Assembly (NCBI GenBank): GCA_001823545.1
Contig: MHUV01000002.1
Span: forward strand, 1 to 57,206
Reading direction: 5' to 3'
DNA from: Candidatus Yonathbacteria bacterium RIFCSPLOWO2_01_FULL_43_27
GTDB lineage: Bacteria; Patescibacteriota; Minisyncoccia; Phycocordibacterales; UBA1550
Length of the DNA stretch: 57,206 bases
Shown here: in pieces, positions 3,360 through 51,594 of the stretch
Layout: each line of letters starts with the position of its first letter
How positions within the stretch are numbered: position 1 is the stretch's first letter
Program-made: the position numbers and the translations under genes
The notes under the pieces: generated by a model
Database searches by the model: none
Seen by the model: the letters and a program-made list of their open reading frames with translations, nothing else
Told to the model about the DNA's origin: nothing

Positions 3360-4631
3360 ATGACAACTATCGTTCAAAAATTAAAACTTATTATCGGAGA
3401 CGCAACGCTCAGAAACCGAGTACTTTTTGTTCTTGGTGCGCTTGTTATTTTCCGCTTTTTTGCGAACATCCCAATTCCAGCTGCGCTCGGACAAAATCTC
3501 ACTGCACTCATTTCTCAGAATCAGGCACTTGGCTTCCTTAATCTTTTGACAGGAGGTGGCCTTTCTGCTGTTTCTCTCGTAATGCTTGGTGTTGGCCCCT
3601 ACATTACCGCATCGATTATTATGCAACTTCTTACGATGATGTCGCCAAAATTTAAGGCGATGCACAGTGAGGAAGGGGAATTGGGTCGTCGTAAGTTTAC
3701 TCAATATTCACGTTTACTTTCCGTTCCGCTTGCTATTACCCAAGGGTATGGACTTCTTGCGTACTTGAGCAGTCAGGGTATCCTTCCTGCACTCACACCA
3801 CTTGATTACTTAATCAATGTCTCGATCGTTGTAGGAGGTTCACTTTTCCTTATGTGGATAGGCGAGCTTATATCAGAGTTCGGTATTGGAAACGGTGTTT
3901 CACTGATTATCTTTGCAGGTATCATTGCACAACTCCCTACCACATTAGGACAACTTGTTTTTACGTTTGATGTGTCACAGATTCCTTTATACTTCGGCGC
4001 TCTTGTCGCTATTCTTTTAATTGTGCTCGCGGTGGTGTATATAACCGAAGCAGAGCGTCCGGTTCCTGTTACCTATGCAAAACAGTCGCGTGGGGGAAGA
4101 ACCACTGCTGGTGGAACAACATATCTTCCACTTCGTGTTAATCAGGCAGGCGTTATCCCTATCATCTTTGCGCTTTCAATACTCATTTTCCCTAACGTTA
4201 TTGCAAATGCGCTTGCTTCACTCGGAAATGAATCAGTGCAAGTTATTGCAACGTTTATTAAAGATGCACTCGCAAATATTTGGGTAAATGGCATTTTGTA
4301 CTTTGTCCTTGTTTTCATCTTTACGTATTTCTATACCGCTATCACCTTTGACCCTGACGCAATCGCTACCAACCTTCAAAAGAATGGCGCGTTTGTACCG
4401 GGTATTCGTCCTGGAACACATACTTCAGAATACCTTGCAAGGATTTTGACACGCCTCACACTCGTAGGTGCTGTATTCCTTGGTATCATTGCGGTGTTGC
4501 CACTCATTATGCAGGAGGTTACTAACGTGCAATCGCTTGCAGTTGGTGGTACAGGACTTCTCATCGTGGTGTCGGTAATCCTCGAACTCGTAAAGAAAGT
4601 GGATGCTCAGGTTTCAATGAGAGAATACTAA
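3360..4631 (+). CDS. secY: Preprotein translocase subunit SecY
   Basis: A 423-aa polytopic membrane protein with SecY motifs (LGQNLTALISQNQALGFLNLLTGGGLS...GVGPYITASIIMQLL), sited after L15. Confidence 0.95.
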   Translation: MTTIVQKLKLIIGDATLRNRVLFVLGALVIFRFFANIPIPAALGQNLTALISQNQALGFLNLLTGGGLSAVSLVMLGVGPYITASIIMQLLTMMSPKFKAMHSEEGELGRRKFTQYSRLLSVPLAITQGYGLLAYLSSQGILPALTPLDYLINVSIVVGGSLFLMWIGELISEFGIGNGVSLIIFAGIIAQLPTTLGQLVFTFDVSQIPLYFGALVAILLIVLAVVYITEAERPVPVTYAKQSRGGRTTAGGTTYLPLRVNQAGVIPIIFALSILIFPNVIANALASLGNESVQVIATFIKDALANIWVNGILYFVLVFIFTYFYTAITFDPDAIATNLQKNGAFVPGIRPGTHTSEYLARILTRLTLVGAVFLGIIAVLPLIMQEVTNVQSLAVGGTGLLIVVSVILELVKKVDAQVSMREY

Positions 4632-4690: not shown

Positions 4691-4926
4691 TCGGTTAATC
4701 TTCAAGGTAAAATGGGGATAGATACCATTATCATAACTTTTCTGGGTTTCAATATTACCTCATCTAATCATTTTTTGACGTCTCGGAGATTTCAGTGTTG
4801 ATTCAAGATGATTCCTTGATACTCATCTTTTCAACCCATGAGTTGCTGTCATGGGGGACATCCTTGTTTATTAAAACAAAGATCGCGTTGAGATCATCAG
4901 GTTTTTCACAATAATAACCCATTTTA

Positions 4927-4980
4927 TATATAACCCTAACGTATAAAATGCTATAGCATTTTATACGTTAGGGTTATATA
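4927..4980. repeat. 54-bp perfect palindrome in the secY-adk spacer
   Basis: TATATAACCCTAACGTATAAAATGC TATA GCATTTTATACGTTAGGGTTATATA was checked base by base and equals its own reverse complement. Confidence 0.9.
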
Positions 4981-5043
4981 GTTGAAGAATATGTGTGCGG
5001 GGACCACTTGCTCTAAAGGTTAAAAGCTAGTAAGCTGAGCATT

Positions 5044-5643
5044 ATGGACTTACAAACAATCATCTTTATTGGACGCTCTGGTGCGGGCAAAGGGGTTCAG
5101 TCGGCGCTCCTTCAAAAATTTCTCAATGAAAAAACTCCCGACGTTCCCATAATCTATTTTGAGACTGGTCAATATTTTAGAAAGTATATGCAGAGTGGTG
5201 GATACACATGGGATCGCGCGCGGGGTACTATTGTGAAAGGAGAGCGTCAACCTGATTTTCTCGCGGTGTGGATATGGGTAAATAATTTTATAGAAAAAGT
5301 TAAAGGGGGAGAACACCTGATTTTTGATGGTACACCTCGTTCGCTCTGGGAGGCAAAAATGCTTCATACGGCACTTCCTTTTTACGAGAGGATGCGTCCT
5401 ATGGTGATTCACCTAGAAATTTCGCGTGAAGAAGCTGAGAAACGTTTGCGAAATCGAGGGAGAGCTGATGATGTTGACGCTGATGCAATAGAGCGACGAT
5501 TTGCGTGGTATGAGCGTGATGTAGTCCCCGCAGTTGATTTTTACCGCGAGGACACAGCGTACCGTTTTCTTGAAATTAATGGTGAACAATCACCCGAAGA
5601 TGTTCATCAGGAAATCGTAGCGCGTTTGATGAGCGAGAAATAG
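5044..5643 (+). CDS. adk: Adenylate kinase (short type, no LID insertion)
   Basis: P-loop GRSGAGKG. ETGQYFRKYMQSG aligns with the STGDMLR NMP-binding motif. DGTPRS corresponds to DGFPRT. The gene sits after secY, as in the canonical operon. Confidence 0.8.
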   Translation: MDLQTIIFIGRSGAGKGVQSALLQKFLNEKTPDVPIIYFETGQYFRKYMQSGGYTWDRARGTIVKGERQPDFLAVWIWVNNFIEKVKGGEHLIFDGTPRSLWEAKMLHTALPFYERMRPMVIHLEISREEAEKRLRNRGRADDVDADAIERRFAWYERDVVPAVDFYREDTAYRFLEINGEQSPEDVHQEIVARLMSEK

Positions 5644-9652: not shown

Positions 9653-9807
9653 CTCCCTGCCTCCCTTAGAGTTTTTATATGATGTGCAATTGTCAAAGAA
9701 CGACAATTTATCCTATATATATTATAGCAAATTTATGTAAAATGTCAATAGTTCAATAAAGGTTAATGGATATTTCTTTCTTTAAGGATTTCATCAGATT
9801 ATTTGTG

Positions 9808-9887
9808 GGCACGGGGAGATTTGAACTCCCAACCCTTGCGGGATGCGCTTCTGAGACGCACGCGTATACCAATTCCGCCACGTGCCC
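9808..9887 (-). tRNA. tRNA-Leu (anticodon CAG), type II with a long variable arm
   Basis: The reverse complement reads GGGCACG-TG-GCGGAATTGGTATACGC-G-TGCGT[CTCAGAA]GCGCA-TCCCGCAAGGGTT-GGGAGTTCAAATCTCCC-CGTGCCC-A. The acceptor pairs fully. The D-arm matches bacterial tRNA-Leu. Confidence 0.8.
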
Positions 9888-10193
9888 ATATTGTATTTGT
9901 ATTGAAGAGGGAAGCGTGTCTATTTTTGTGCCGAGGAGAGGACTCGGTCAAGCGCTCGCTCGTCGTCACCACGTTTTTCGCTCTCTCCCTACAGGAGCAG
10001 TACACCTTTTGGCTCTTTTGTTTCGCCTGCTCACAAAACAGCTTAAAAGGTCTTGCGGAAGCTCCACGTATTCGCTTCCTTACCTGCTTGTGCGACCCAT
10101 CGAGCACGACGGGTACCCGCACTCGCTTTCGAGTCCTCTCCTCCGCCTACAAAATTTAGTTACGAAAAGCTACCACTTTTCGTTTCCAATTTT

Positions 10194-10236
10194 GTGCCGA
10201 GGAGAGGACTCGAACCTCCACAGGTTACCCCTTCCT
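10194..10236 (-). pseudogene. Orphan 3' portion of a Leu-type tRNA (variable arm, T-arm and acceptor 3' strand) with no contiguous 5' half
   Basis: The reverse complement reads ...GGGGTAACCTGTG-GAGGTTCGAGTCCTCT-CCTCGGC-A. It is nearly identical to the 3' part of tRNA-Leu(UAG). No matching GCCGAGG acceptor strand or valid anticodon stem lies in the adjoining 5' sequence. Confidence 0.5.
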
Positions 10237-10343
10237 AATGCCTGTTTCGCGTACGCTCAACAACGGCATTTGCGCATACGCGCACCGGATGAAAATCAAA
10301 GCAGTTTGATTTTCATTCCCGCGTCAGTTCGTCACGCGCAAAG

Positions 10344-10425
10344 TGCTGGGGAGAGGACTCGAACCTCCACAGGTTACCCCGACTGCTCCTAAGGCAGTTG
10401 CGTCTACCAATTTCGCCACCCCAGC
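10344..10425 (-). tRNA. tRNA-Leu (anticodon UAG)
   Basis: The reverse complement reads GCTGGGG-TG-GCGAAATTGGTAGACGC-A-ACTGC[CTTAGGA]GCAGT-CGGGGTAACCTGTG-GGAGGTTCGAGTCCTCT-CCCCAGC-A. Confidence 0.8.
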
Positions 10426-10437
10426 ACTTTAGGCGCG

Positions 10438-10467
10438 ACTTGCGTCTACCAATTTCGCCACCTCGGC
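10438..10467 (-). pseudogene. Orphan 5' portion of a Leu-type tRNA (acceptor 5' strand and D-arm only)
   Basis: The reverse complement reads GCCGAGG-TG-GCGAAATTGGTAGACGCAAG. The D-arm is identical over 21 nt to tRNA-Leu(UAG), then the sequences diverge. Its acceptor GCCGAGG is exactly complementary to the CCTCGGC of the 3' fragment at 10194-10236. Confidence 0.5.
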
Positions 10468-10957
10468 TTCTTCATAACAACTTACACTAAATAACAAGAA
10501 AAAGCGAGTTTTGAGATTGATCTGAATCTCGTTTAGTGACGTTTGTGGTCACAGATAATTTCCTCGCCGTCGCTCGGAAATTTCGCAGTCACAACTTTTT
10601 GCTCGACCGCCGTCTCGCAAAAGTCGCGACCCCTCCTCACTCGTTTTTCTTGCTAGAAAAACGAGTTCCGGCCTTGCGAAGCTCCATGTATTCGCTTCTC
10701 ACCTGGCTCGCTGTTTTGTTTTGCTAAACAAAACATGCTTCGCCTTGCACAAACTAAAAATCTGCCGCAGGCGCTGTTTTTCTTTACGTTTGAATTGCTA
10801 TTTTTGTGGTCACAAGTCACTAAGTCTACTCGTGCGAGTACGCACTGCGTGGACGTAAGTGCTCGCGACCCCGGCTCGTGGTTTTGTGTGCTCACAAAAC
10901 ATCACTGCGCCTTGCACAATGAGAAAATGGTGCGCAGGCACCATTTTCTTTTCATTG

Positions 10958-11030
10958 TGCACCCACCTGGACTCGAACCAGGGACCATCTCCTTAAGAGG
11001 GAGTTGCTCTACCAACTGAGCTATGGATGC
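10958..11030 (-). tRNA. tRNA-Lys (anticodon CUU)
   Basis: The reverse complement reads GCATCCA-TA-GCTCAGTTGGTAGAGC-A-ACTCC[CTCTTAA]GGAGA-TGGTC-CCTGGTTCGAGTCCAGG-TGGGTGC-A. The acceptor has one G-U pair. The anticodon stem has an A-A mismatch at 27-43. Confidence 0.7.
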
Positions 11031-11142
11031 AGACCTATATTCAAAGAGTATACACAAAAATAAAGATTTTGGAAGAGTTTGTGCTTTGAGTTTAATAATT
11101 AGAGGCAAGTAAGATTAACCTAAGTTTTTAAAATACACGAAA

Positions 11143-11205
11143 TCCGTATTAGCTCCTCGGCTCGGAAGTGAGAAAGATTACTTTCTCACTTCACTCGCTC
11201 TACGT
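11143..11205 (+). repeat. Dispersed roughly 60-nt repeat (family A), copy 1; it contains the hairpin GTGAGAAAG-atta-CTTTCTCAC
   Basis: GTATTAGCTCCTCGGCTCGGAAGTGAGAAAGATTACTTTCTCACTTCACTCGCTCTACGT. A near-identical inverted copy lies at 20281-20340. Confidence 0.8.
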
Positions 11206-11243
11206 CGCTAATAATATTGCTCGTAGTTCCTGATTTGTTTAGT

Positions 11244-11324
11244 GGGTCAGGAGGGAATCGAACCCTCAATCCTTTCGGCGGGAAATTTTAAGTTTCCTGT
11301 GTATACCATTCCACCACTGACCCT
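11244..11324 (-). tRNA. tRNA-Leu (anticodon UAA)
   Basis: The reverse complement reads GGGTCAG-TG-GTGGAATGGTATACAC-A-GGAAA[CTTAAAA]TTTCC-CGCCGAAAGGATT-GAGGGTTCGATTCCCTC-CTGACCC-A. Confidence 0.8.
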
Positions 11325-11326
11325 TT

Positions 11327-11803
11327 TTAGGATTTTTTCTTTCGATTAAGTCCTCGATGCGTTGGTTTTAAACTGTGGCAATTTGGACAAAGAATCCGAA
11401 GATTCTCTATTCTGTTGTCTGTTCTGTCCCCATTTATATGGTCAAGCTCAACTGGGATTCTACCATCAATCGACTTTTTCGCCCAGCCACATTCTTCGCA
11501 TTGTGAATTTTTTAAATTATCTTTGAAGAGTCGTCGTTTCAGCTTGTAGCTTTGGAAACGGCTATCTCTCGTAAGGATCTTATTGAGAGGTATGAGTGGC
11601 TTACCGATTCCCTTTAGTCCTTTACTCCATCCAATGCCAGTAAAGTGTTTAATATCCAGACCGTAATCTTTGACGGCATTGTTAATTTGCGCATAATTTC
11701 CTCCTGCCTCTTTTAGATTGAGTTTTTTGAGAACTTGCCGTACGCTTGTAGAGTTTTTAACAGCGACCCTCAATTGTTCTTCTGTCCAACTTCGTTTCCT
11801 CAT
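11327..11803 (-). CDS. HNH endonuclease (homing-endonuclease-like), free-standing within the tRNA island
   Basis: C-terminal ELDHINGDRTDNRIENLRILCPNCH is the classic HNH core, with an additional CEECGW zinc-finger pair. The N-terminal region (WTEEQLRVAVKNSTSVRQVLKKLNL...GGNY) looks like a small DNA-binding module. The start is placed at MRKRSW. The stop lies 3 nt from the tRNA-Leu(UAA) 3' end. Confidence 0.85.
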   Translation of the reverse strand: MRKRSWTEEQLRVAVKNSTSVRQVLKKLNLKEAGGNYAQINNAVKDYGLDIKHFTGIGWSKGLKGIGKPLIPLNKILTRDSRFQSYKLKRRLFKDNLKNSQCEECGWAKKSIDGRIPVELDHINGDRTDNRIENLRILCPNCHSLKPTHRGLNRKKKS

Positions 11804-11914
11804 GCATAAAAGTATACCATAATGGAAGGCATAGAGGAATACATGTACATAGTTGCCTACCTTTTTAATTAAGAAACTCAATTATATTGCAATTCTTTCT
11901 TGAGGCGTGGGCTC

Positions 11915-11980
11915 CTCTCGGTCACGAGTTACTAAGTGTGCTCGGGCGACTACGCCCTGTGCGCACTAAGTACTCTCGAC
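11915..11980 (+). repeat. Dispersed roughly 65-nt repeat (family R), copy 2
   Basis: GTCACGAGTTACTAAGTGTGCTCGGGCGACTACGCCCTGTGCGCACTAAGTACTCTCGACCCGGGCTCG. Its reverse complement recurs at 20641-20705 with a few substitutions. A diverged copy lies at 10806-10877. Confidence 0.8.
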
Positions 11981-12085
11981 CCGGGCTCGCTGTCGCTTTG
12001 CGACATGCTCCGCCTTTCGATTCTCGACGCAGGCAAAGCAGTTTGCCTGCTCCCACGCCAAGAAAATTCTCTAAGAATTTTCTTG

Positions 12086-12157
12086 AGGCGTGGGCGAGAA
12101 TCGAACTCGCGCATAGGGGATTTGCAGTCCCCCGCCTTACCACTTGGCCACCACGCC
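12086..12157 (-). tRNA. tRNA-Cys (anticodon GCA)
   Basis: The reverse complement reads GGCGTGG-TG-GCCAAGTGGTAAGGC-G-GGGGA[CTGCAAA]TCCCC-TATGC-GCGAGTTCGATTCTCGC-CCACGCC-T. The discriminator U73 is the Cys identity element. Confidence 0.85.
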
Positions 12158-20435: not shown

Positions 20436-20519
20436 GCGTAGGTGGTAGAGCGGTCAATTACAACAGACTGTAAATCTGTCGCCCATTGGGCTACGCAGGT
20501 TCAAATCCTGCCCTACGCA
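20436..20519 (+). tRNA. tRNA-Tyr (anticodon GUA), type II
   Basis: GCGTAGG-TG-GTAGAGCGGTCAATTAC-A-ACAGA[CTGTAAA]TCTGT-CGCCCATTGGGCT-ACGCAGGTTCAAATCCTGC-CCTACGC-A. Confidence 0.85.
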
Positions 20520-20567
20520 CAATACAAAAAACGCCCCTCAAGGGGCGTTTTTTGTATTGTGCGTAGG
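20512..20567. terminator. Terminator hairpin embedded in a 56-nt perfect palindrome that includes the tRNA-Tyr 3' acceptor strand
   Basis: CCTACGCACAATACAAAAAACGCCCC-tcaa-GGGGCGTTTTTTGTATTGTGCGTAGG. The core hairpin plus T-run is at 20526-20553. Confidence 0.75.
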
Positions 20568-45415: not shown

Positions 45416-46378
45416 ATGAAAAAAGAACATATGGTATTGGTTGCAACGCTTGGTTTGGCACTGGTGGCAATCCCTGCTTTTGCAGATGATAGAATCAATT
45501 CGCTTCCTACGACAACGATAGGAACTTCAACAAACCACGTACAGGCTCCCGTTGTTAAACAAAAGAAATTGCAAGAGGTAAAACGTGAAATCGAAGAAGC
45601 GCGCAAAGAAACACGAAGCGAGGTGAAGGATATTCGTGAAAAAGCGCTCAAAGAGACCCACGAGGCACGCGAAGGGCTCCATGATGAAGTAAAAACACTT
45701 CGTCAGGGTGTGGCAAGTTCTACGGCAACGGGGACTGCTCCAATGTTCAAAAAACTCATCGAAGAGCGTCGAGAGCATTTTAAAAATCAACTCGAAGAAA
45801 GAAAGGATGAAGTAAAGAAAAAGATTGAAATTGAAAAACTCCGCCTTAACGAAAAACTTAAAACAATAAAGGACGAGCGAAAGAAACAAACGGTGCAGAA
45901 AGTTAATGCTGAGATTCAGGTAATCAACACACGAAAGCTCGAGCATTATTCAAATGTTCTCAATCAGATCGAGGAAGTATTGAAGAAGGTGGGAACTCGT
46001 GTGGATAATGCAGCAGTACGTGGGCTTAACGTAAGTAACGTACGAACAAATATCACTGCGGTAGAAACTGCAATTGCTACAGCACGTGCATCTATCGTAA
46101 CTCAGTCTTCAAAGGTCTACACGGTTACCGTTACCACCGAAGGAAACCTCAAGAATGATACAGGGGTAACTCGCAAAGCACTCCAGAAAGATCTCTCTGT
46201 GGTACAGGATTTGGTAAAGGCTGCCCATGATGCACTTCGCAAAACTGCGGTAAGTTTGGCGCAGGTACCTCGTATTAATGATACGAACGGCTCAGCAACA
46301 TCAACAGCTACCTCGATAGGACAGACCGAAACTACTACTACCGCAACATCAACAGCGACCTCGACTGCAACTAATTAA
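45416..46378 (+). CDS. Secreted coiled-coil protein with a C-terminal (T-A-T-S)n repeat tail
   Basis: Signal peptide MKKEHMVLVATLGLALVAIPAFA. A long K/E-rich heptad-like region. The tail is TSTATSIGQTETTTTATSTATSTATN. Confidence 0.6.
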   Translation: MKKEHMVLVATLGLALVAIPAFADDRINSLPTTTIGTSTNHVQAPVVKQKKLQEVKREIEEARKETRSEVKDIREKALKETHEAREGLHDEVKTLRQGVASSTATGTAPMFKKLIEERREHFKNQLEERKDEVKKKIEIEKLRLNEKLKTIKDERKKQTVQKVNAEIQVINTRKLEHYSNVLNQIEEVLKKVGTRVDNAAVRGLNVSNVRTNITAVETAIATARASIVTQSSKVYTVTVTTEGNLKNDTGVTRKALQKDLSVVQDLVKAAHDALRKTAVSLAQVPRINDTNGSATSTATSIGQTETTTTATSTATSTATN

Positions 46379-47283: not shown

Positions 47284-47823
47284 CTATTTTTTTGACGCTC
47301 GTTCCAGAATTACGGTAAGGCCTTTAGGACTTTTAAGAGGCTCTCCAGCGACTTTGTAGTCTTCGCTAATAAGATTCAAGATTCTTTCGAGACGCTCTTT
47401 TTTGAAATCCATATCCGTAAACTTTGAACGTCCAGTAAGGAAAAGGTCTACTTTAACCCGATGTCCTTCCTTAAGCCATTTTGAAGCATTTTTTGCTTTT
47501 AGCTCAAGGTCGTGCTCGGAAGTGCCAATCTTAACCTGAAGGGACTTTGTTTCGGTGGTATGAGTTCGCGCTTTTGCCTCCTTTTGTTTCTTATTCTGCT
47601 GATACTGAAACTTACCATAATCCATTATTTTTGCAATAGGGGGCACAGCCGCAGGGGAGATCTCGATAAGATCAAGTCCTAATGCTTGCGCTTTTGCTAG
47701 TGCTTCTGAGAGAGAGATAATTCCAAGGTTATCACCGGTTTCGGTAATAACGCGGAGCTCTTTCGCTCTAATGTGATGATTGATTTTTATTGAAGGAGTC
47801 AACGTGAATTGTTCAAACCGCAA
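47284..47823 (-). CDS. infC: Translation initiation factor IF-3
   Basis: INHHIRAKELRVITETGDNLGIISLSEALAKAQALGLDLIEISPAAVPPIAKIMDYGKFQYQ. IF-3 genes commonly use an AUU/AUA start, so the exact 5' end is uncertain. Confidence 0.9.
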   Translation of the reverse strand: MRFEQFTLTPSIKINHHIRAKELRVITETGDNLGIISLSEALAKAQALGLDLIEISPAAVPPIAKIMDYGKFQYQQNKKQKEAKARTHTTETKSLQVKIGTSEHDLELKAKNASKWLKEGHRVKVDLFLTGRSKFTDMDFKKERLERILNLISEDYKVAGEPLKSPKGLTVILERASKK

Positions 47824-47990
47824 GGAACCTGCGGAATGCTATATAATATATGGCATTTTGAATTAAAAGTCAATGGTAGCGTTTGTCGTTGATGGAAGGA
47901 GGAAGGGAGTAGAAAAATGTGTTTGAGGCGAGTTTTTTGATTGTTTTAGGATGGTGAATGAAAATAGAATAAATATTATGCTTTAAAAAC

Positions 47991-48102
47991 TTGACTTTTT
48001 CGTAATATTTGTTATATTGTATGTATGTGAGTGCGCGAGGGCAACCTCGGGCGATTCAACAAACGAATGTCTGCAAAAACCTCCGCGCAAGCGGAGTTTT
48101 TT
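47991..48102 (+). ncRNA. Candidate small RNA: a sigma-70-like promoter followed about 75 nt later by an intrinsic terminator, divergent from infC
   Basis: TTGACT (47991-47996), a 16-nt spacer, then TATATT (48013-48018). Then GUGAGUGCGCGAGGGCAACCUCGGGCG... ends in CTCCGC-gcaa-GCGGAG plus T6 (48081-48102). No ORF follows. Confidence 0.4.
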
Positions 48103-48254
48103 GTTTCTGTTTTTTCTTGGTATGTTTTGCTATACTCTTAATAAAGTTCCTGTGTTCTTTTGACTAGCGACTGCACTCACATATTTAGACATTTGTTGGA
48201 GTTCGCACTCGCTAGTCAAAAGAGTACGGGAAAAATATTTACATAAAGAATTAT

Positions 48255-48293
48255 AAAAAATTGCGCACAGATATCTGTGCGCAATTATTTTTT
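48255..48293. terminator. Perfect 28-bp palindrome flanked by an A-run and a T-run (bidirectional terminator)
   Basis: AAAAAATTGCGCACAGAT/ATCTGTGCGCAATTATTTTTT. Confidence 0.75.
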
Positions 48294-48414
48294 AATACGT
48301 GTACATTAAAATTATTTTTTAATTAATAAAAAATATTGAGAAATAAAATTAATTAATTTTTTATTTTTTTATTTTGTAAAAATATTTTAATAAATTTTTT
48401 TTACAAAAAAAAGT

Positions 48415-48423
48415 TATCCACAG
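48415..48423 (+). promoter_or_regulatory. Single consensus DnaA box inside a tract of about 90% AT
   Basis: TTATCCACA is an exact match to the DnaA-box consensus. The surrounding tract at 48300-48480 is almost entirely A/T. Confidence 0.3.
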
Positions 48424-48643
48424 TTTTTTTACAAAAAAGTATTGTAAATGATTTTCATATGCGTGATAATAATAGTAGATCAGTACACAGAGTATGAAAA
48501 ATATTTTCATACACGAATGATCCAATGATCAAACATGACAACACATTTTATTTTAATATATGTTGTCGGTCGAAGATTATTGTAAAAAATAATTTGCATA
48601 CAAATGTACATACATACGTGTATGTACATACGTACATAAAACA

Positions 48644-48715
48644 ATGGCAGCAAAAAAGAAGGCAAAGAAGGCAGCAAAGAAAGTAGCAAAGAAAGCAGCT
48701 AAGAAGCGCAAATAG
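48644..48715 (+). CDS. 23-codon micro-ORF encoding a Lys/Ala-only peptide (MAAKKKAKKAAKKVAKKAAKKRK), followed by a terminator
   Basis: Read directly from the sequence. A hairpin (AACCGCCC-cag-GGCGGTT plus T-run) lies at 48743-48765. There is no obvious Shine-Dalgarno. It could instead be the 5' region of an RNA. Confidence 0.3.
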   Translation: MAAKKKAKKAAKKVAKKAAKKRK

Positions 48716-48786
48716 TTTTTCAAGCACATAGTGTGCAGCAATAACCGCCCCAGGGCGGTTTTTGTTTTTTCCAGAGAAGCCTTACG

Positions 48787-51594
48787 TTGCTTGTGAAATA
48801 TGGTATACTTTATACATATATGGCACTATGGGGAGCACAACATCATGAAAGAGGGGAGCAAGGTAACTCTTTAGGGAATACAAAAAAATTTGAAACTCCC
48901 CACGAGGAGATTGCATATTTACGCGCACGTATCGAAGAACAGGAACAGGTGATGACACAAAATGGTCATACTATTGAACGACCGCATGTCGCGAAAGAAA
49001 AGATTTTAGAATATCGCGAGGAGGTTCCTGAAAAAATATTAAAGGAAACATATCAGATTAAGGCACAGGAAATAGAAGAGCGTGTACTTGGATTAGATAA
49101 AGAGCGTTCAGAAATGATTGATGAACTCGTGCGCATTATGATGGAACGTGGTATTAAAAATACACTCACCATACTTGAAAAGTTGCACAACCCTCGCCTC
49201 GAAGACGACTTCCATCGTTTTCTCGTGCAGTTTCTTTCAGACACATCGTTCACTTCAATAGTAAAAGAACGCGTACTCTTTCGTGCGCTTCGTATGCGTT
49301 TGTACGAGATCACCTTACCGCCGATTAATCAAAAAGGTGAAGCAAGAAGTTTTGCAGACCTCGTAACAGGAATGGAACAGTTTTATGCAGGAATGCTTTC
49401 CGTAGAGGCGACATCTTCTGTGTGGGGCGAAGTAAAAAATTACTTTACTCTTGAGCTCGCACTTTCAAATATTTCAAGCGAAGTGGTGTTTTATGCGGCA
49501 GTGCCTTTTGAATACAGCGACTTATTTGAAAAGCAAATACTTTCTGCATATCCAGATGCAAAAATTCGTGAGCATAAAGAAGACTACAATCCATTTAATG
49601 AAGCGGGAGTAACGCTTGCTTCTGTTGCTGAACCAGTAGGAAATCAGGTTTTTGCCATGAAGACGTTTGAAAAGTTTTCCCAGGATCCGTTAAATACACT
49701 TCTTGGTGCCTTTAGTAAGATAGAGCACGCAGGAGAGGGTGTTGCGATACAGTTTGTTATTGAGCCACAAGGAAAGGCGTTTAATGATGTCTATAAAAAT
49801 GCGAGAGAGGAAATTAAAAAAGGTATACCGGTAAAAAAAGCGCTTGAGAGTACCACGATGCGTTTTGCTACGGGTTTTGCCTCGGTAGCCAAAGAACTCA
49901 TGTTTGGTATTAAGAAGAATGAAGAACATATTGACCAAGAAGCGGTTGAGAGTATTACAGAAAAAATCTCTTCACCGGTAGTGGATACCAATATTCGCAT
50001 TGTGGTGTCGGCGGGGGATGAAGCACGCGCGACAGCACTTTTGAATGAACTTGAATCCACGTTTAATCAATTCAATAAACCACACGCTAACGGTATTAAA
50101 TGGCGTCGCCTTACGACGGGTGCAGAACTTGCAAAAACTATTTCTCAGTACTCGTTCCGTATATTTGAGAAGAATCAAAGTTTTCCGTTGAATCTTAAAG
50201 AGCTTACAACGATATTCCATTTCCCCGTAACAGAAGTATCCTCTCCTGAGCTCAAAGAATCCCGCGCGGGAGTTGCGCCAGCACCGCTCACACTTTCTTC
50301 TGAGGGTGTCGTACTTGGTGTAAATCGTTATCATAATAAAGAAACACAGGTGCATATGGGGCGCGAGGATCGCATGCGTCATTTATATGTCATTGGACAG
50401 ACGGGAACTGGGAAGACGAGCATTTTGAAAAATATGATTGTGCAGGATATCCGCAATGGTGACGGCGTCTGTTTCATTGATCCGCATGGTTCTGACATAC
50501 AGGATATTCTTGCCCTTGTGCCACCTGAACGTGCAGATGACGTCATTTATTTTGATCCTGCTGATACAGCGCGTCCTATGGGGCTCAATATGCTTGAGTA
50601 TGATAGAGAGAAGCCCGAACAAAAAACGTTTGTGGTGAACGAGATGATGAATATCTTCAATCAACTCTTTGATATGAAGGTTGGTGGTGGGCCAATGTTT
50701 GATCAGTATTTTAGAAATGCAGCAGCGCTCGTGATGGAGCATCCAGAATCTGGCTCTACGCTTCTCGAGATTACCCGTGTACTTGCGGATAAGGATTTTC
50801 GTGCAATGAAGCTTGCGCACTGTAAAAATCCTATCATCGCACAGTTTTGGACAAGCGCAGAAAAAACTACCGGAGATCAAGGGCTCGCAAATTTTGTGCC
50901 CTACATCTCGAGTAAGTTTGATAACTTTATTTCCAACGATATTATGCGTCCGATTGTGCTCCAGCAGAACTCGACGCTTAATTTTAGAAAGATTATGGAC
51001 GAGAAAAAGATTCTCCTCGTCAATCTTTCAAAAGGACGCTTGGGTGATATCAACGCCAATTTCATCGGGCTTTTGCTCGTAGGGAAAATAATGATGGCAG
51101 CTCTTTCGCGGGTAGATATGTTTGGTACGGGTACCACGCCAAAGGATTTTTATTTGTATATCGACGAATTCCAAAATGTGACGACGCCTTCTATCGCAAC
51201 TATTCTTTCCGAAGCGCGCAAGTATCGTCTCTCGCTCACCGTAGCGCACCAATTTATTGCACAACTTACCGATGAAATAAAAAATGCGGTATTTGGTAAC
51301 GTGGGTTCGATGGCGGTGTTCCGTGTTGGTCCCGATGATGCAAAATATCTCGAGAGTAAGTTTGCACCTACCTTTAGCGCTGAGGATATAACACGCCTCG
51401 ATAACTATCAAGCGTATCTGAGTCTTTTAATTAACGGTCAGCCAGGGAAGTCGTTCAATATTGCTACGTTGTCACCAGAAAAGGGTGACGCGTCTTCCGC
51501 AGAGCACATAAAAGAACTCTCTCGTTCGAAGTATGGACTTTCTCGAGAGATAGTTGAAGCGGAAATTTTTTCGCGTTTTGAGGCAGGGAAGTGA
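48787..51594 (+). CDS. VirD4/TraG-like (type IV coupling protein family) ATPase. It is soluble, with a roughly 500-aa N-terminal extension and no TM anchor.
   Basis: Walker A GQTGTGKT, then FIDPHGSD (compare the v.DPKGE motif). DVIYFDPADTARPMGLNMLE (compare the NPL motif). Walker B LYIDEFQNV. C-terminal EARKYRLSLTVAHQFIAQL resembles the TraG-D_C pattern RKyg..l....Q...QL. The start could be 48820 or 48952 (AGGTG before MTQNGH). Confidence 0.65.
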   Translation: MLVKYGILYTYMALWGAQHHERGEQGNSLGNTKKFETPHEEIAYLRARIEEQEQVMTQNGHTIERPHVAKEKILEYREEVPEKILKETYQIKAQEIEERVLGLDKERSEMIDELVRIMMERGIKNTLTILEKLHNPRLEDDFHRFLVQFLSDTSFTSIVKERVLFRALRMRLYEITLPPINQKGEARSFADLVTGMEQFYAGMLSVEATSSVWGEVKNYFTLELALSNISSEVVFYAAVPFEYSDLFEKQILSAYPDAKIREHKEDYNPFNEAGVTLASVAEPVGNQVFAMKTFEKFSQDPLNTLLGAFSKIEHAGEGVAIQFVIEPQGKAFNDVYKNAREEIKKGIPVKKALESTTMRFATGFASVAKELMFGIKKNEEHIDQEAVESITEKISSPVVDTNIRIVVSAGDEARATALLNELESTFNQFNKPHANGIKWRRLTTGAELAKTISQYSFRIFEKNQSFPLNLKELTTIFHFPVTEVSSPELKESRAGVAPAPLTLSSEGVVLGVNRYHNKETQVHMGREDRMRHLYVIGQTGTGKTSILKNMIVQDIRNGDGVCFIDPHGSDIQDILALVPPERADDVIYFDPADTARPMGLNMLEYDREKPEQKTFVVNEMMNIFNQLFDMKVGGGPMFDQYFRNAAALVMEHPESGSTLLEITRVLADKDFRAMKLAHCKNPIIAQFWTSAEKTTGDQGLANFVPYISSKFDNFISNDIMRPIVLQQNSTLNFRKIMDEKKILLVNLSKGRLGDINANFIGLLLVGKIMMAALSRVDMFGTGTTPKDFYLYIDEFQNVTTPSIATILSEARKYRLSLTVAHQFIAQLTDEIKNAVFGNVGSMAVFRVGPDDAKYLESKFAPTFSAEDITRLDNYQAYLSLLINGQPGKSFNIATLSPEKGDASSAEHIKELSRSKYGLSREIVEAEIFSRFEAGK

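Follow-up and report, generated by a model that had tools for sequence, protein, structure and literature searches.

Is the longest non-coding stretch of this DNA a replication origin, the edge of an integrated element, or a gene? The DNA in question (hereafter, the window: the whole analysed stretch of 57,206 nucleotides (nt), with positions given on its forward strand) comes from an ultra-small, Candidatus Yonathbacteria-like groundwater member of the Parcubacteria/Paceibacteria, within the candidate phyla radiation (CPR), and the stretch is a 996-nt gap at 47824-48819. An initial annotation had noted there an A+T-rich tract, a DnaA box, a palindrome, an alternating purine/pyrimidine element, a very short Lys/Ala open reading frame (the micro-ORF) and a terminator, and had hesitated between the three answers. 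All these features are real, some of them lying 1-3 nt away from the position first reported. The gap is made of three conserved small transcription units described in no database. The best reading of the third, which contains the micro-ORF, is a lineage-specific small gene, complete in itself, whose product would be a polycationic peptide similar to the tail of histone H1; its probability is put at roughly one half.

A search with the 924-amino-acid (aa) ATPase encoded to the right of the gap (48820-51594, plus strand; DUF8128 and VirD4/TraD-like P-loop domain) returned more than 1,600 homologues across Paceibacteria, and only three clusters are at least 80% identical to the window protein: L090 (92%), L094 (88%) and L091 (80%). 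Together with the window, with which a near-identical strain variant (L004/L104; 100%) was counted, they form four lineages, and the unit is kept whole in all of them: box, box-promoter spacing, promoter, leader, ATG, TAG and terminator. At four-fold sites of the ATPase gene, identity to the window is 0.48 in L094, 0.62 in L090 and 0.40 in L091 (the latter near saturation); against these values, identity of the leader amounts to 0.97, 0.86 and 0.77, respectively, and that of the junction blocks to 0.88-1.0. Invariant or nearly so are: (i) the box-bearing motif GTTATCCACAG and its 19-nt spacing; (ii) the hexamers TTGTAA and GATAAT; (iii) long blocks of the leader, such as GAATGATCCAATGATCAAACATGAC, GTCGGTCGAAGAT and TAATTTGCATACA; and (iv) nine codons at the start of the ORF and six at its end, as well as the sequence right after its stop. 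The diverged parts are the A+T spacer, the hairpin arms and the loops. Such site-specific conservation argues against recent transfer as the cause of the similarity.

In all lineages, 19 nt separate the motif GTTATCCACAG from the -35 hexamer of a sigma-70-type promoter downstream, and the centre of the motif is found at about -60 with respect to the predicted start; transcription would begin at about 48478. The initial annotation was right in placing an exact DnaA box here, though TTATCCACA starts at 48414 (48414-48422, plus strand) and not at 48415. In DnaA-controlled promoters (dnaA, nrdAB and sda types), a DnaA box near the promoter works as operator. The unit shares with them an exact consensus box, a fixed distance to the -35 hexamer and conservation amid diverged flanks, but it has one box only. 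A second exact TTATCCACA is present at 46000-46008 on the minus strand, inside a 320-aa ORF (45416-46378) whose secreted-looking, coiled-coil-like product has no Pfam match; it is probably a chance occurrence, two exact boxes per 57 kb being only mildly above expectation.

The predicted transcript (48478-48772, about 293 nt) folds with a z-score of -5.6 relative to dinucleotide shuffles, and its helices are named in Table 1. Across five variants, all from one narrow clade, 95% of the consensus-fold cells are paired. Double-sided pair changes number 11 in this alignment versus 3.7 +/- 1.5 in column shuffles (none of 500 reaches 11), and sliding the partners by 1-3 columns gives 0-4. Covariation is located in P2a, P4, the 3' hairpin and the terminator, the stem of which shows compensatory changes in L094; P1, P1a and P2 have no double-sided (compensatory) change and, hence, are uninformative on pairing. 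The terminator announced behind the ORF was confirmed, with 7 pairs (5 G-C) in its stem followed by TTTTTGTTTTTT. On these five variants, the RNA itself is clearly under selection.

Table 1. Features of the small transcription unit and its surroundings, with positions in the window.
Feature	Position	Strand	Remarks
Candidate small RNA A (sRNA-A)	47991-48103	+	strong promoter TTGACT-16-TATATT with upstream TG; transcript ~75 nt, expected at about 48025-48103
Candidate small RNA B (sRNA-B)	48128-48295	+	extended -10 TGCTATACT (48128-48136); 86-nt hairpin 48147-48232; RNA expected at about 48143-48295
Perfect 28-nt palindrome	48259-48286	.	scores as bidirectional intrinsic terminator
A+T-rich spacer, from terminator to promoter-upstream box	48287-48412	.	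~93-94% A+T; composition outlier; sequence unconserved
GTTATCCACAG, containing exact DnaA-box consensus TTATCCACA (48414-48422)	48413-48423	+	invariant in all lineages
Sigma-70-type promoter TTGTAA-17 nt-GATAAT	48442-48470	+	both hexamers invariant in relatives
Structured 5' leader, 166 nt	48478-48643	+	fold z-score, covariation
P1	48478-82/48518-22	+	consensus fold
P1a	48492-48500/48504-12	+	consensus fold
P2	48523-30/48575-82	+	consensus fold
P2a	48536-46/48558-68	+	covaries
P3 (predicted), 5' strand AAAAAUAAUUUGC	48585-48597	+	pairs with 48708-48720, RNAalifold
P4 (CATAC/GTATG alternating element)	48599-48615/48618-48634	+	covaries
Micro-ORF MAAKKKAKKAAKKVAKKAAKKRK, 23 codons and TAG	48644-48715	+	predicted isoelectric point (pI) ~11.6; orthologues of 23, 26 and 18 codons
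3' end: small covarying hairpin (48725-28/48732-35), intrinsic terminator (stem 48743-48760), U-tract	48725-48772	+	
Extended -10 promoter of ATPase gene, TGGTATACT	48801-48809	+	10 nt before ATG 48820; right-hand boundary of unit

A long-range helix, P3, is also predicted. Its 3' strand GCAAAUAGUUUUU comprises the last codon of the ORF, the stop and 5 nt beyond, and its 12 pairs (-8.5 kcal/mol) would enclose the ORF together with P4. As the two strands are invariant and show no covariation among the five variants, P3 is here only hypothesised as a helix closing around the ORF. P4 is the alternating element of the initial annotation: the alternation is perfect over 35 nt (48604-48638), the longest in the window (the next spans 18 nt, and the maximum in 200 shuffles was 22). 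The arms of P4 alternate strictly in every lineage despite their different sequences (GTACATAC.., GCACATAC.., GTACGTACGC..), which exceeds what a hairpin needs; a Z-form or supercoiling-sensitive element and a tetranucleotide-repeat mutational bias are indistinguishable as reasons for it. When Rfam 15 was applied to the whole window at gathering thresholds, only tRNAs passed; at E <= 10, no credible family was found in 47700-48950, where the best match (E = 0.04) is a microRNA model on a hairpin. A 12-bit RsmY match covers just a terminator.

Only five changes in 1.2 kb separate the window from the co-occurring strain variant L004/L104: an A inserted in a junction (equivalent to 48515) and, grouped together in the 5' arm of P2a, four transitions (equivalent to 48539-48544). 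At least three of these transitions convert C-G or A-U pairs into U-G or G-U pairs and are, in consequence, compatible only with an RNA of the plus strand; the variant is a small natural experiment in favour of the fold. This polarity touches on a type I toxin-antitoxin-like arrangement, in which a hydrophobic peptide encoded on the minus strand (..FLAAFFATFFAAFFAFFFAAIV..) would have the plus-strand RNA as its antisense partner. In every lineage the corresponding minus-strand frame is open, and its product resembles a membrane helix, but: (i) its start codon is unconserved (ATG only in the window and L091); (ii) substitutions become Ala-to-Asp changes inside the "helix"; (iii) the C-terminal part is frameshifted between lineages; (iv) no minus-strand promoter-like site lies to its right; and (v) the G-U-preserving changes fit a plus-strand RNA only. 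None of the three minus-strand frames is conserved, and such an arrangement is hardly credible.

The micro-ORF runs from the ATG at 48644, the position originally given, to the TAG ending at 48715 and encodes, in 23 codons, MAAKKKAKKAAKKVAKKAAKKRK, a peptide with 13 basic residues (12 Lys and 1 Arg) and 8 Ala. It is the window's sole Lys/Ala-rich ORF or protein segment. Its orthologues are MAAKKKAKKVAKKSKKVAKKAAKKRK (L090, 26 aa), MAAKKKAKKSAKKVAKKAAKKRK (L094, 23 aa) and MAAKKKAKKAKKAAKKRK (L091, 18 aa); across lineages, the peptides consist of Lys, Ala and a few Val, Ser or Arg, carry 11-15 basic residues and have a mass of 2.0-2.9 kDa. The calculated monoisotopic mass of the window peptide is 2378.62 Da without Met and 2509.66 Da with it, and variants in related populations would have 2012 and 2881 Da. 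The likeness to histone H1 tails and AlgP that had been pointed out stands as regards the AKKA/KKAA repeats of Lys and Ala and the pI of 11.6, but no homology to that family is detectable.

The frame, whose conservation in relatives had been proposed as a check, is kept in all four lineages with the element. Both ATG and TAG are conserved in the four; ORF length changes by +9 and -15 nt, always a multiple of 3, while leader and 3' untranslated region carry 1-nt indels; all Lys codons stay Lys (AAA/AAG swaps only); and changes at first and second codon positions are confined to the spacer residue (Ala/Ser/Val). The A-rich ATGGCA start context matches that of other window genes, and, in every variant, most of the start region is free of pairing (0.60-0.73). 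The micro-ORF has no Shine-Dalgarno site. Its translation is plausible all the same, such sites being out of use in this genome: a Shine-Dalgarno-like motif precedes just 6 of the 52 long ORFs of the window. According to a published survey, part of the Parcubacteria has lost the anti-Shine-Dalgarno motif (PMC9297842). Eight of the 12 Lys codons are AAG, versus 36% genome-wide (P = 0.03), an over-use that results in fewer slippery A-runs. On balance, translation of the micro-ORF is given slightly better than even odds. Another plus-strand frame of 53 codons, which overlaps it and extends over the leader, was rejected, since a 1-nt indel breaks it between lineages.

Several observations weigh against a peptide gene: (i) the tract is nearly T-free, so that open frames are expected on both strands; (ii) the repeats are built of 3-nt-periodic units, which makes indels of 3n nt weak coding evidence; (iii) just about four substitutions are available for judging coding, in the same five variants; (iv) the exact DnaA consensus has 2 copies in 57 kb, and a single nonamer can be due to chance; and (v) a conserved leader of 166 nt is unusual where many genes have a -10-like box at most 15 nt before the ATG. 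Moreover, there is 1 third-position difference in 18 codons relative to L091, while four-fold sites are 60% different, and this over-conservation of synonymous sites suggests selection acting on the RNA itself. The peptide has no match in NCBIfam or among PDB sequences, and its 40-aa stop-to-stop frame found one meaningless match (E = 9) in a set of 5.8 billion proteins; low complexity and short length limit such homology searches. Gene callers rarely report ORFs of fewer than 30 codons. With regard to gene starts in the window, a -10-like hexamer ends 0-15 nt before the ATG in 14 of 39 ATG-start genes, and very short or absent 5' leaders seem common in this genome.

In the main rival explanation, the transcript of about 293 nt acts as an RNA, either non-coding or with a dual function, and the frame is incidental or secondary. 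Its single-stranded purine tract, (GCA)AAGAAG repeated 3-5 times and closed by P3, would be the functional part, for example a sponge or docking site occupied by either an RNA-binding protein or a pyrimidine-rich RNA. In favour of this, synonymous positions and long stretches of the leader are near-invariant against a divergence of 40-60% at neutral sites, the length and structure of the leader are unusual in this genome, and the predicted P3 encloses the tract with two invariant strands. Like sponge RNAs, the tract differs in its number of repeat units from one close lineage to another; open frames are to be expected in so T-poor a tract, and two more small structured RNAs directly upstream make the locus an RNA-gene cluster. 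With sponges of the CsrB/RsmY type the transcript has in common a repeated unpaired purine motif in variable copy number, a stable scaffold and a strong terminator, but its unit lacks GGA in hairpin loops and an Rfam match, and its repeats keep the ATG/TAG frame. No GGA-type or other known protein-binding repeat is present, ATG, TAG, Lys codons and 3n indels are preserved together with a gene-like start context, and P3 shows no covariation. Likewise, an 8-nt complementarity between the sRNA-B loop and the leader, noticed by eye in the window, is lost in L091. A non-coding or dual-function RNA is a tentative alternative, possible rather than likely.

Under the preferred reading, that of a small gene for a polycationic peptide, the unit would work as follows. 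The palindromic terminator would end the preceding small RNA, and the A+T tract would serve both as insulating spacer and as upstream promoter context; the conserved box at about -60 would be the operator for DnaA or for another factor reading TGTGGATAAC. Polymerase would start at about 48478, from TTGTAA-17-GATAAT, and produce a stable transcript of about 293 nt, the 5' end of which would pair at once. This paired end and the leader hairpins probably stabilise and/or regulate the message, and translation of the ORF, from an A-rich, weakly structured start region, would need no Shine-Dalgarno site. The result would be a polycation of 2.0-2.9 kDa with 11-15 positive charges, and the drifting number of AKK-type units would fit a charge-dependent function instead of a fixed fold. 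Such a peptide may bind polyanions (DNA, RNA/ribosomes, polyphosphate) in the manner of a free histone H1 tail or protamine. It might also bind its own message, the leader being reminiscent of the feedback leaders of ribosomal-protein genes. A bolder version, in which the product would be a replication-coupled (DnaA box), self-feedback polycation micro-protein, of recent origin in a single genus-level lineage and the smallest dedicated nucleic-acid-condensing or ribosome-associated one known in bacteria, is speculative and rather improbable.

Among known systems, Pseudomonas AlgP and chlamydial Hc1/Hc2 are H1-like proteins with Lys/Ala repeats. HupB and HBHA are presented as nucleoid-associated proteins in the literature (PMC5676037, PMC10665949). 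AlgP, Hc1/Hc2, the C-terminal tail of mycobacterial HupB and HBHA share with the micro-ORF peptide the composition, the AKKA/KKAA grammar and the very high pI, and they presumably bind polyanions through charge, as proposed here. H1-like proteins are, however, at least 100 aa long or form tails on a folded domain, whereas here 18-26 residues stand alone behind a long structured leader. A second comparison is with uS19 of Parcubacteria, which has a specific Ala/Lys-rich C-terminal extension of about 25 residues (PMC9297842). This extension occurs in the same phylum-level group and agrees with the micro-ORF peptide in length (about 25 aa) and in its Ala and Lys; the former is part of uS19 and the latter free-standing, and the two were compared by description, the uS19 gene being outside the window. 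By analogy, it suggests that Ala/Lys segments contact RNA in these organisms.

Other ribosomal proteins offer a third comparison. Very small basic ones, such as eL41, Thermus Thx and mycobacterial bL37/bS22, have 20-35 residues of which at least half are basic, and a long conserved structured 5' leader before the gene of an RNA-binding protein is a hallmark of ribosomal-protein feedback. Size and basicity are shared, but those proteins have a fixed length, are Arg-rich, non-repetitive and widespread, in contrast to 18-26 codons in one clade here. Whether small basic-protein gene or small-RNA locus, the unit is a member of no described family, with a stand-alone, repeat-only product, variable length and a narrow clade.

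The distribution of the unit, or cassette, is indeed restricted. No Lys/Ala micro-ORF was found within 4 kb of the ATPase gene in any of 80 Paceibacteria loci at 49-73% ATPase identity, and nhmmer searches of those 80 loci, for which the transcript and both upstream small RNAs served as queries, gave no match beyond the close clade. Five contigs at 73-75% identity (L092, L095, L100, L101, L102) have no cassette, and show other upstream genes and short gaps, so the cassette is absent beside the ATPase gene in 85 relatives at <=75% identity. When metagenomes were scanned for a 20-mer that is invariant in the leader, one true match, identical to the window, and three chance matches were obtained; the N-terminal 180 aa of the ATPase, used as query for contig fragments, gave only one 59%-identical fragment. 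Exact copies of L20 and EF-P in the same neighbourhood are found in GCA_000997715.1 (LCJQ01000005.1), GCA_001825065.1 and several groundwater metagenome contigs; these exact look-ups led to the same strain or to the near-identical L004/L104 variant only. The organism occurs in JGI 3300002502 and 3300025015, as well as in several ENA/SRA assemblies. Nothing was found in viral contigs, searched with patterns of the ORF and of the leader, or by blastn in plasmid and phage records. As sampled by these searches, the element is a lineage-specific novelty at the genus level. A literature search brought up no article dealing with Lys-rich micro-ORFs or with small RNAs of Patescibacteria; the only relevant items in it were the uS19 extension and the loss of the anti-Shine-Dalgarno motif described above.

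What, then, of a replication origin? The initial annotation had proposed an unwinding element or origin remnant on account of the DnaA box and of a tract (48300-48480) of about 90% A+T. An exact conserved consensus does lie beside A+T-rich DNA: the tract measures 87.8% A+T, and its core (48284-48403; 94.2%) is the richest 120-nt stretch of the window, the runner-up reaching 78%. The box is, however, a lone one. Degenerate boxes form no cluster, there being 3 sites with <=2 mismatches in 47800-48900 (about 2.7/kb, versus a window mean of 3.2/kb); matches with <=1 mismatch number 20 in the window against 13.6 +/- 3.5 expected, within chance, and the nearest are 2.4 kb off on either side. Cumulative GC skew climbs from 0 to 4.8 across the window (positive at 44-46 and 47-53 kb, -0.04 at 46-47 kb) and passes through 48.3 kb without an extremum, a DnaA-type Walker motif occurs in no frame of the window, and neither iteron-like direct repeats nor similarity to plasmid or phage records was found. 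The A+T spacer does not align from one lineage to the next, and that of L091 is GC-interrupted as well as shorter; it is the 19 nt between box and promoter that are kept instead. Finally, the cassette is missing from the relatives at <=75% ATPase identity, in which an origin would persist. An origin, origin remnant or DnaA-box-based unwinding element has, therefore, practically no probability, and the DnaA box and A+T island should not anchor replication analyses of these genomes.

The right-hand neighbour raises two further possibilities. One is that the micro-ORF acts as a leader peptide or upstream ORF whose Lys codons attenuate expression of the ATPase gene, given that 12 of 23 codons are Lys and that the ORF is followed by a hairpin, a terminator and that gene. 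Yet no alternative antiterminator exists, the best upstream pairing for the 5' arm of the terminator reaching -5.1 versus -15.5 kcal/mol for the terminator itself; the ATPase has no link to lysine metabolism; and its gene has its own extended -10 promoter, so near the ATG that an essentially leaderless mRNA is predicted. A TGnTATAnT-type motif lies about 10-13 nt before the ATPase ATG in the relatives that were read, with or without the cassette. Attenuation is, in consequence, highly improbable.

The other possibility is that the gap marks the junction or scar of a mobile or integrated element whose cargo would be either the cassette or the ATPase, the latter as envisaged by the initial annotation. 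The gap is indeed a synteny breakpoint with lineage-specific insertions and a different upstream gene in almost every lineage: infC in the window, a TPR gene in L091, and threonine synthase, map and others in more distant relatives. The very narrow distribution of the cassette points the same way. The ATPase, on the other hand, is a vertically conserved core gene of Paceibacteria (at least 580 genomes) that shares with relatives its downstream synteny (efp, recA, ftsK) and has its promoter regardless of the cassette; no integrase, repeats or tRNA border the locus, viral, phage and plasmid collections hold no match, and the identity is site-specific, not uniform as after recent transfer. A mobile-element junction is very unlikely. 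The terminator between the genes, the absence of a competing antiterminator and the separate ATPase promoter lead to the rejection of both the leader-peptide and the cargo readings, leaving the unit independent of the ATPase gene.

CPR bacteria are uncultivated and have tiny genomes; annotation pipelines discard ORFs below about 30 codons and know almost none of the RNAs of these organisms. If the peptide is made, a charge-only polycation similar to a histone tail can be an independent bacterial gene product, recently formed by repeat expansion, and the unit is a candidate DnaA-regulated gene in a group whose regulation is essentially undescribed. If it is not made, the unit is a new structured RNA with a purine-repeat module.

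To the left of the gap, infC-rpmI-rplT are encoded on the minus strand (IF3 domains confirmed), and the two remaining units of the gap precede the micro-ORF on the plus strand. The sRNA-A has a GNRA-capped hairpin, GCGCGAGG-GCAA-CCUCGGGC, a conserved single-stranded segment, AUUCAACAAACGAAUGUCUGCAAAAA, and an intrinsic terminator (48081-48096). It is about 90% identical in L091, with G-U-compatible changes; it has no Rfam match and was not found in other loci. A 19-nt resemblance between sRNA-A and the start of the ORF (repeat D5) has no conserved frame. In sRNA-B, an apical region of the hairpin, about 25 nt long (ACUCACAUAUUUAGACAUUUGUUGGAG), is 100% conserved, and the stem shows, relative to L091, 2 compensatory changes, 3 wobble changes and 2 broken pairs. 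Its RNA ends at the palindrome AATTGCGCACAGATATCTGTGCGCAATT, perfect over 28 nt as first described, though at 48259-48286 instead of 48262-48289; we infer that this palindrome terminates sRNA-B and insulates the unit. Relatives have a different palindromic terminator at the equivalent place. sRNA-A, sRNA-B and the micro-ORF unit form a three-gene RNA cluster that accompanies the ATPase gene in L091.

A cluster of five tRNA genes (Leu-CAG, Leu-TAG, Lys-CTT, Leu-TAA and Cys-GCA) is located on the minus strand within 9805-12157, and a separate tRNA-Tyr gene on the plus strand at 20436-20520; tRNA-Lys(CTT) decodes AAG, the preferred Lys codon of the micro-ORF. In the JGI record of this locus (L001/L109), two odd gene calls at 4101-4341 and 4726-5048 (48577-48817 and 47870-48192 of the window, minus strand) span 241 and 323 nt, with listed products of just 11 and 20 residues; they are probably a pipeline artefact over the RNA cluster.

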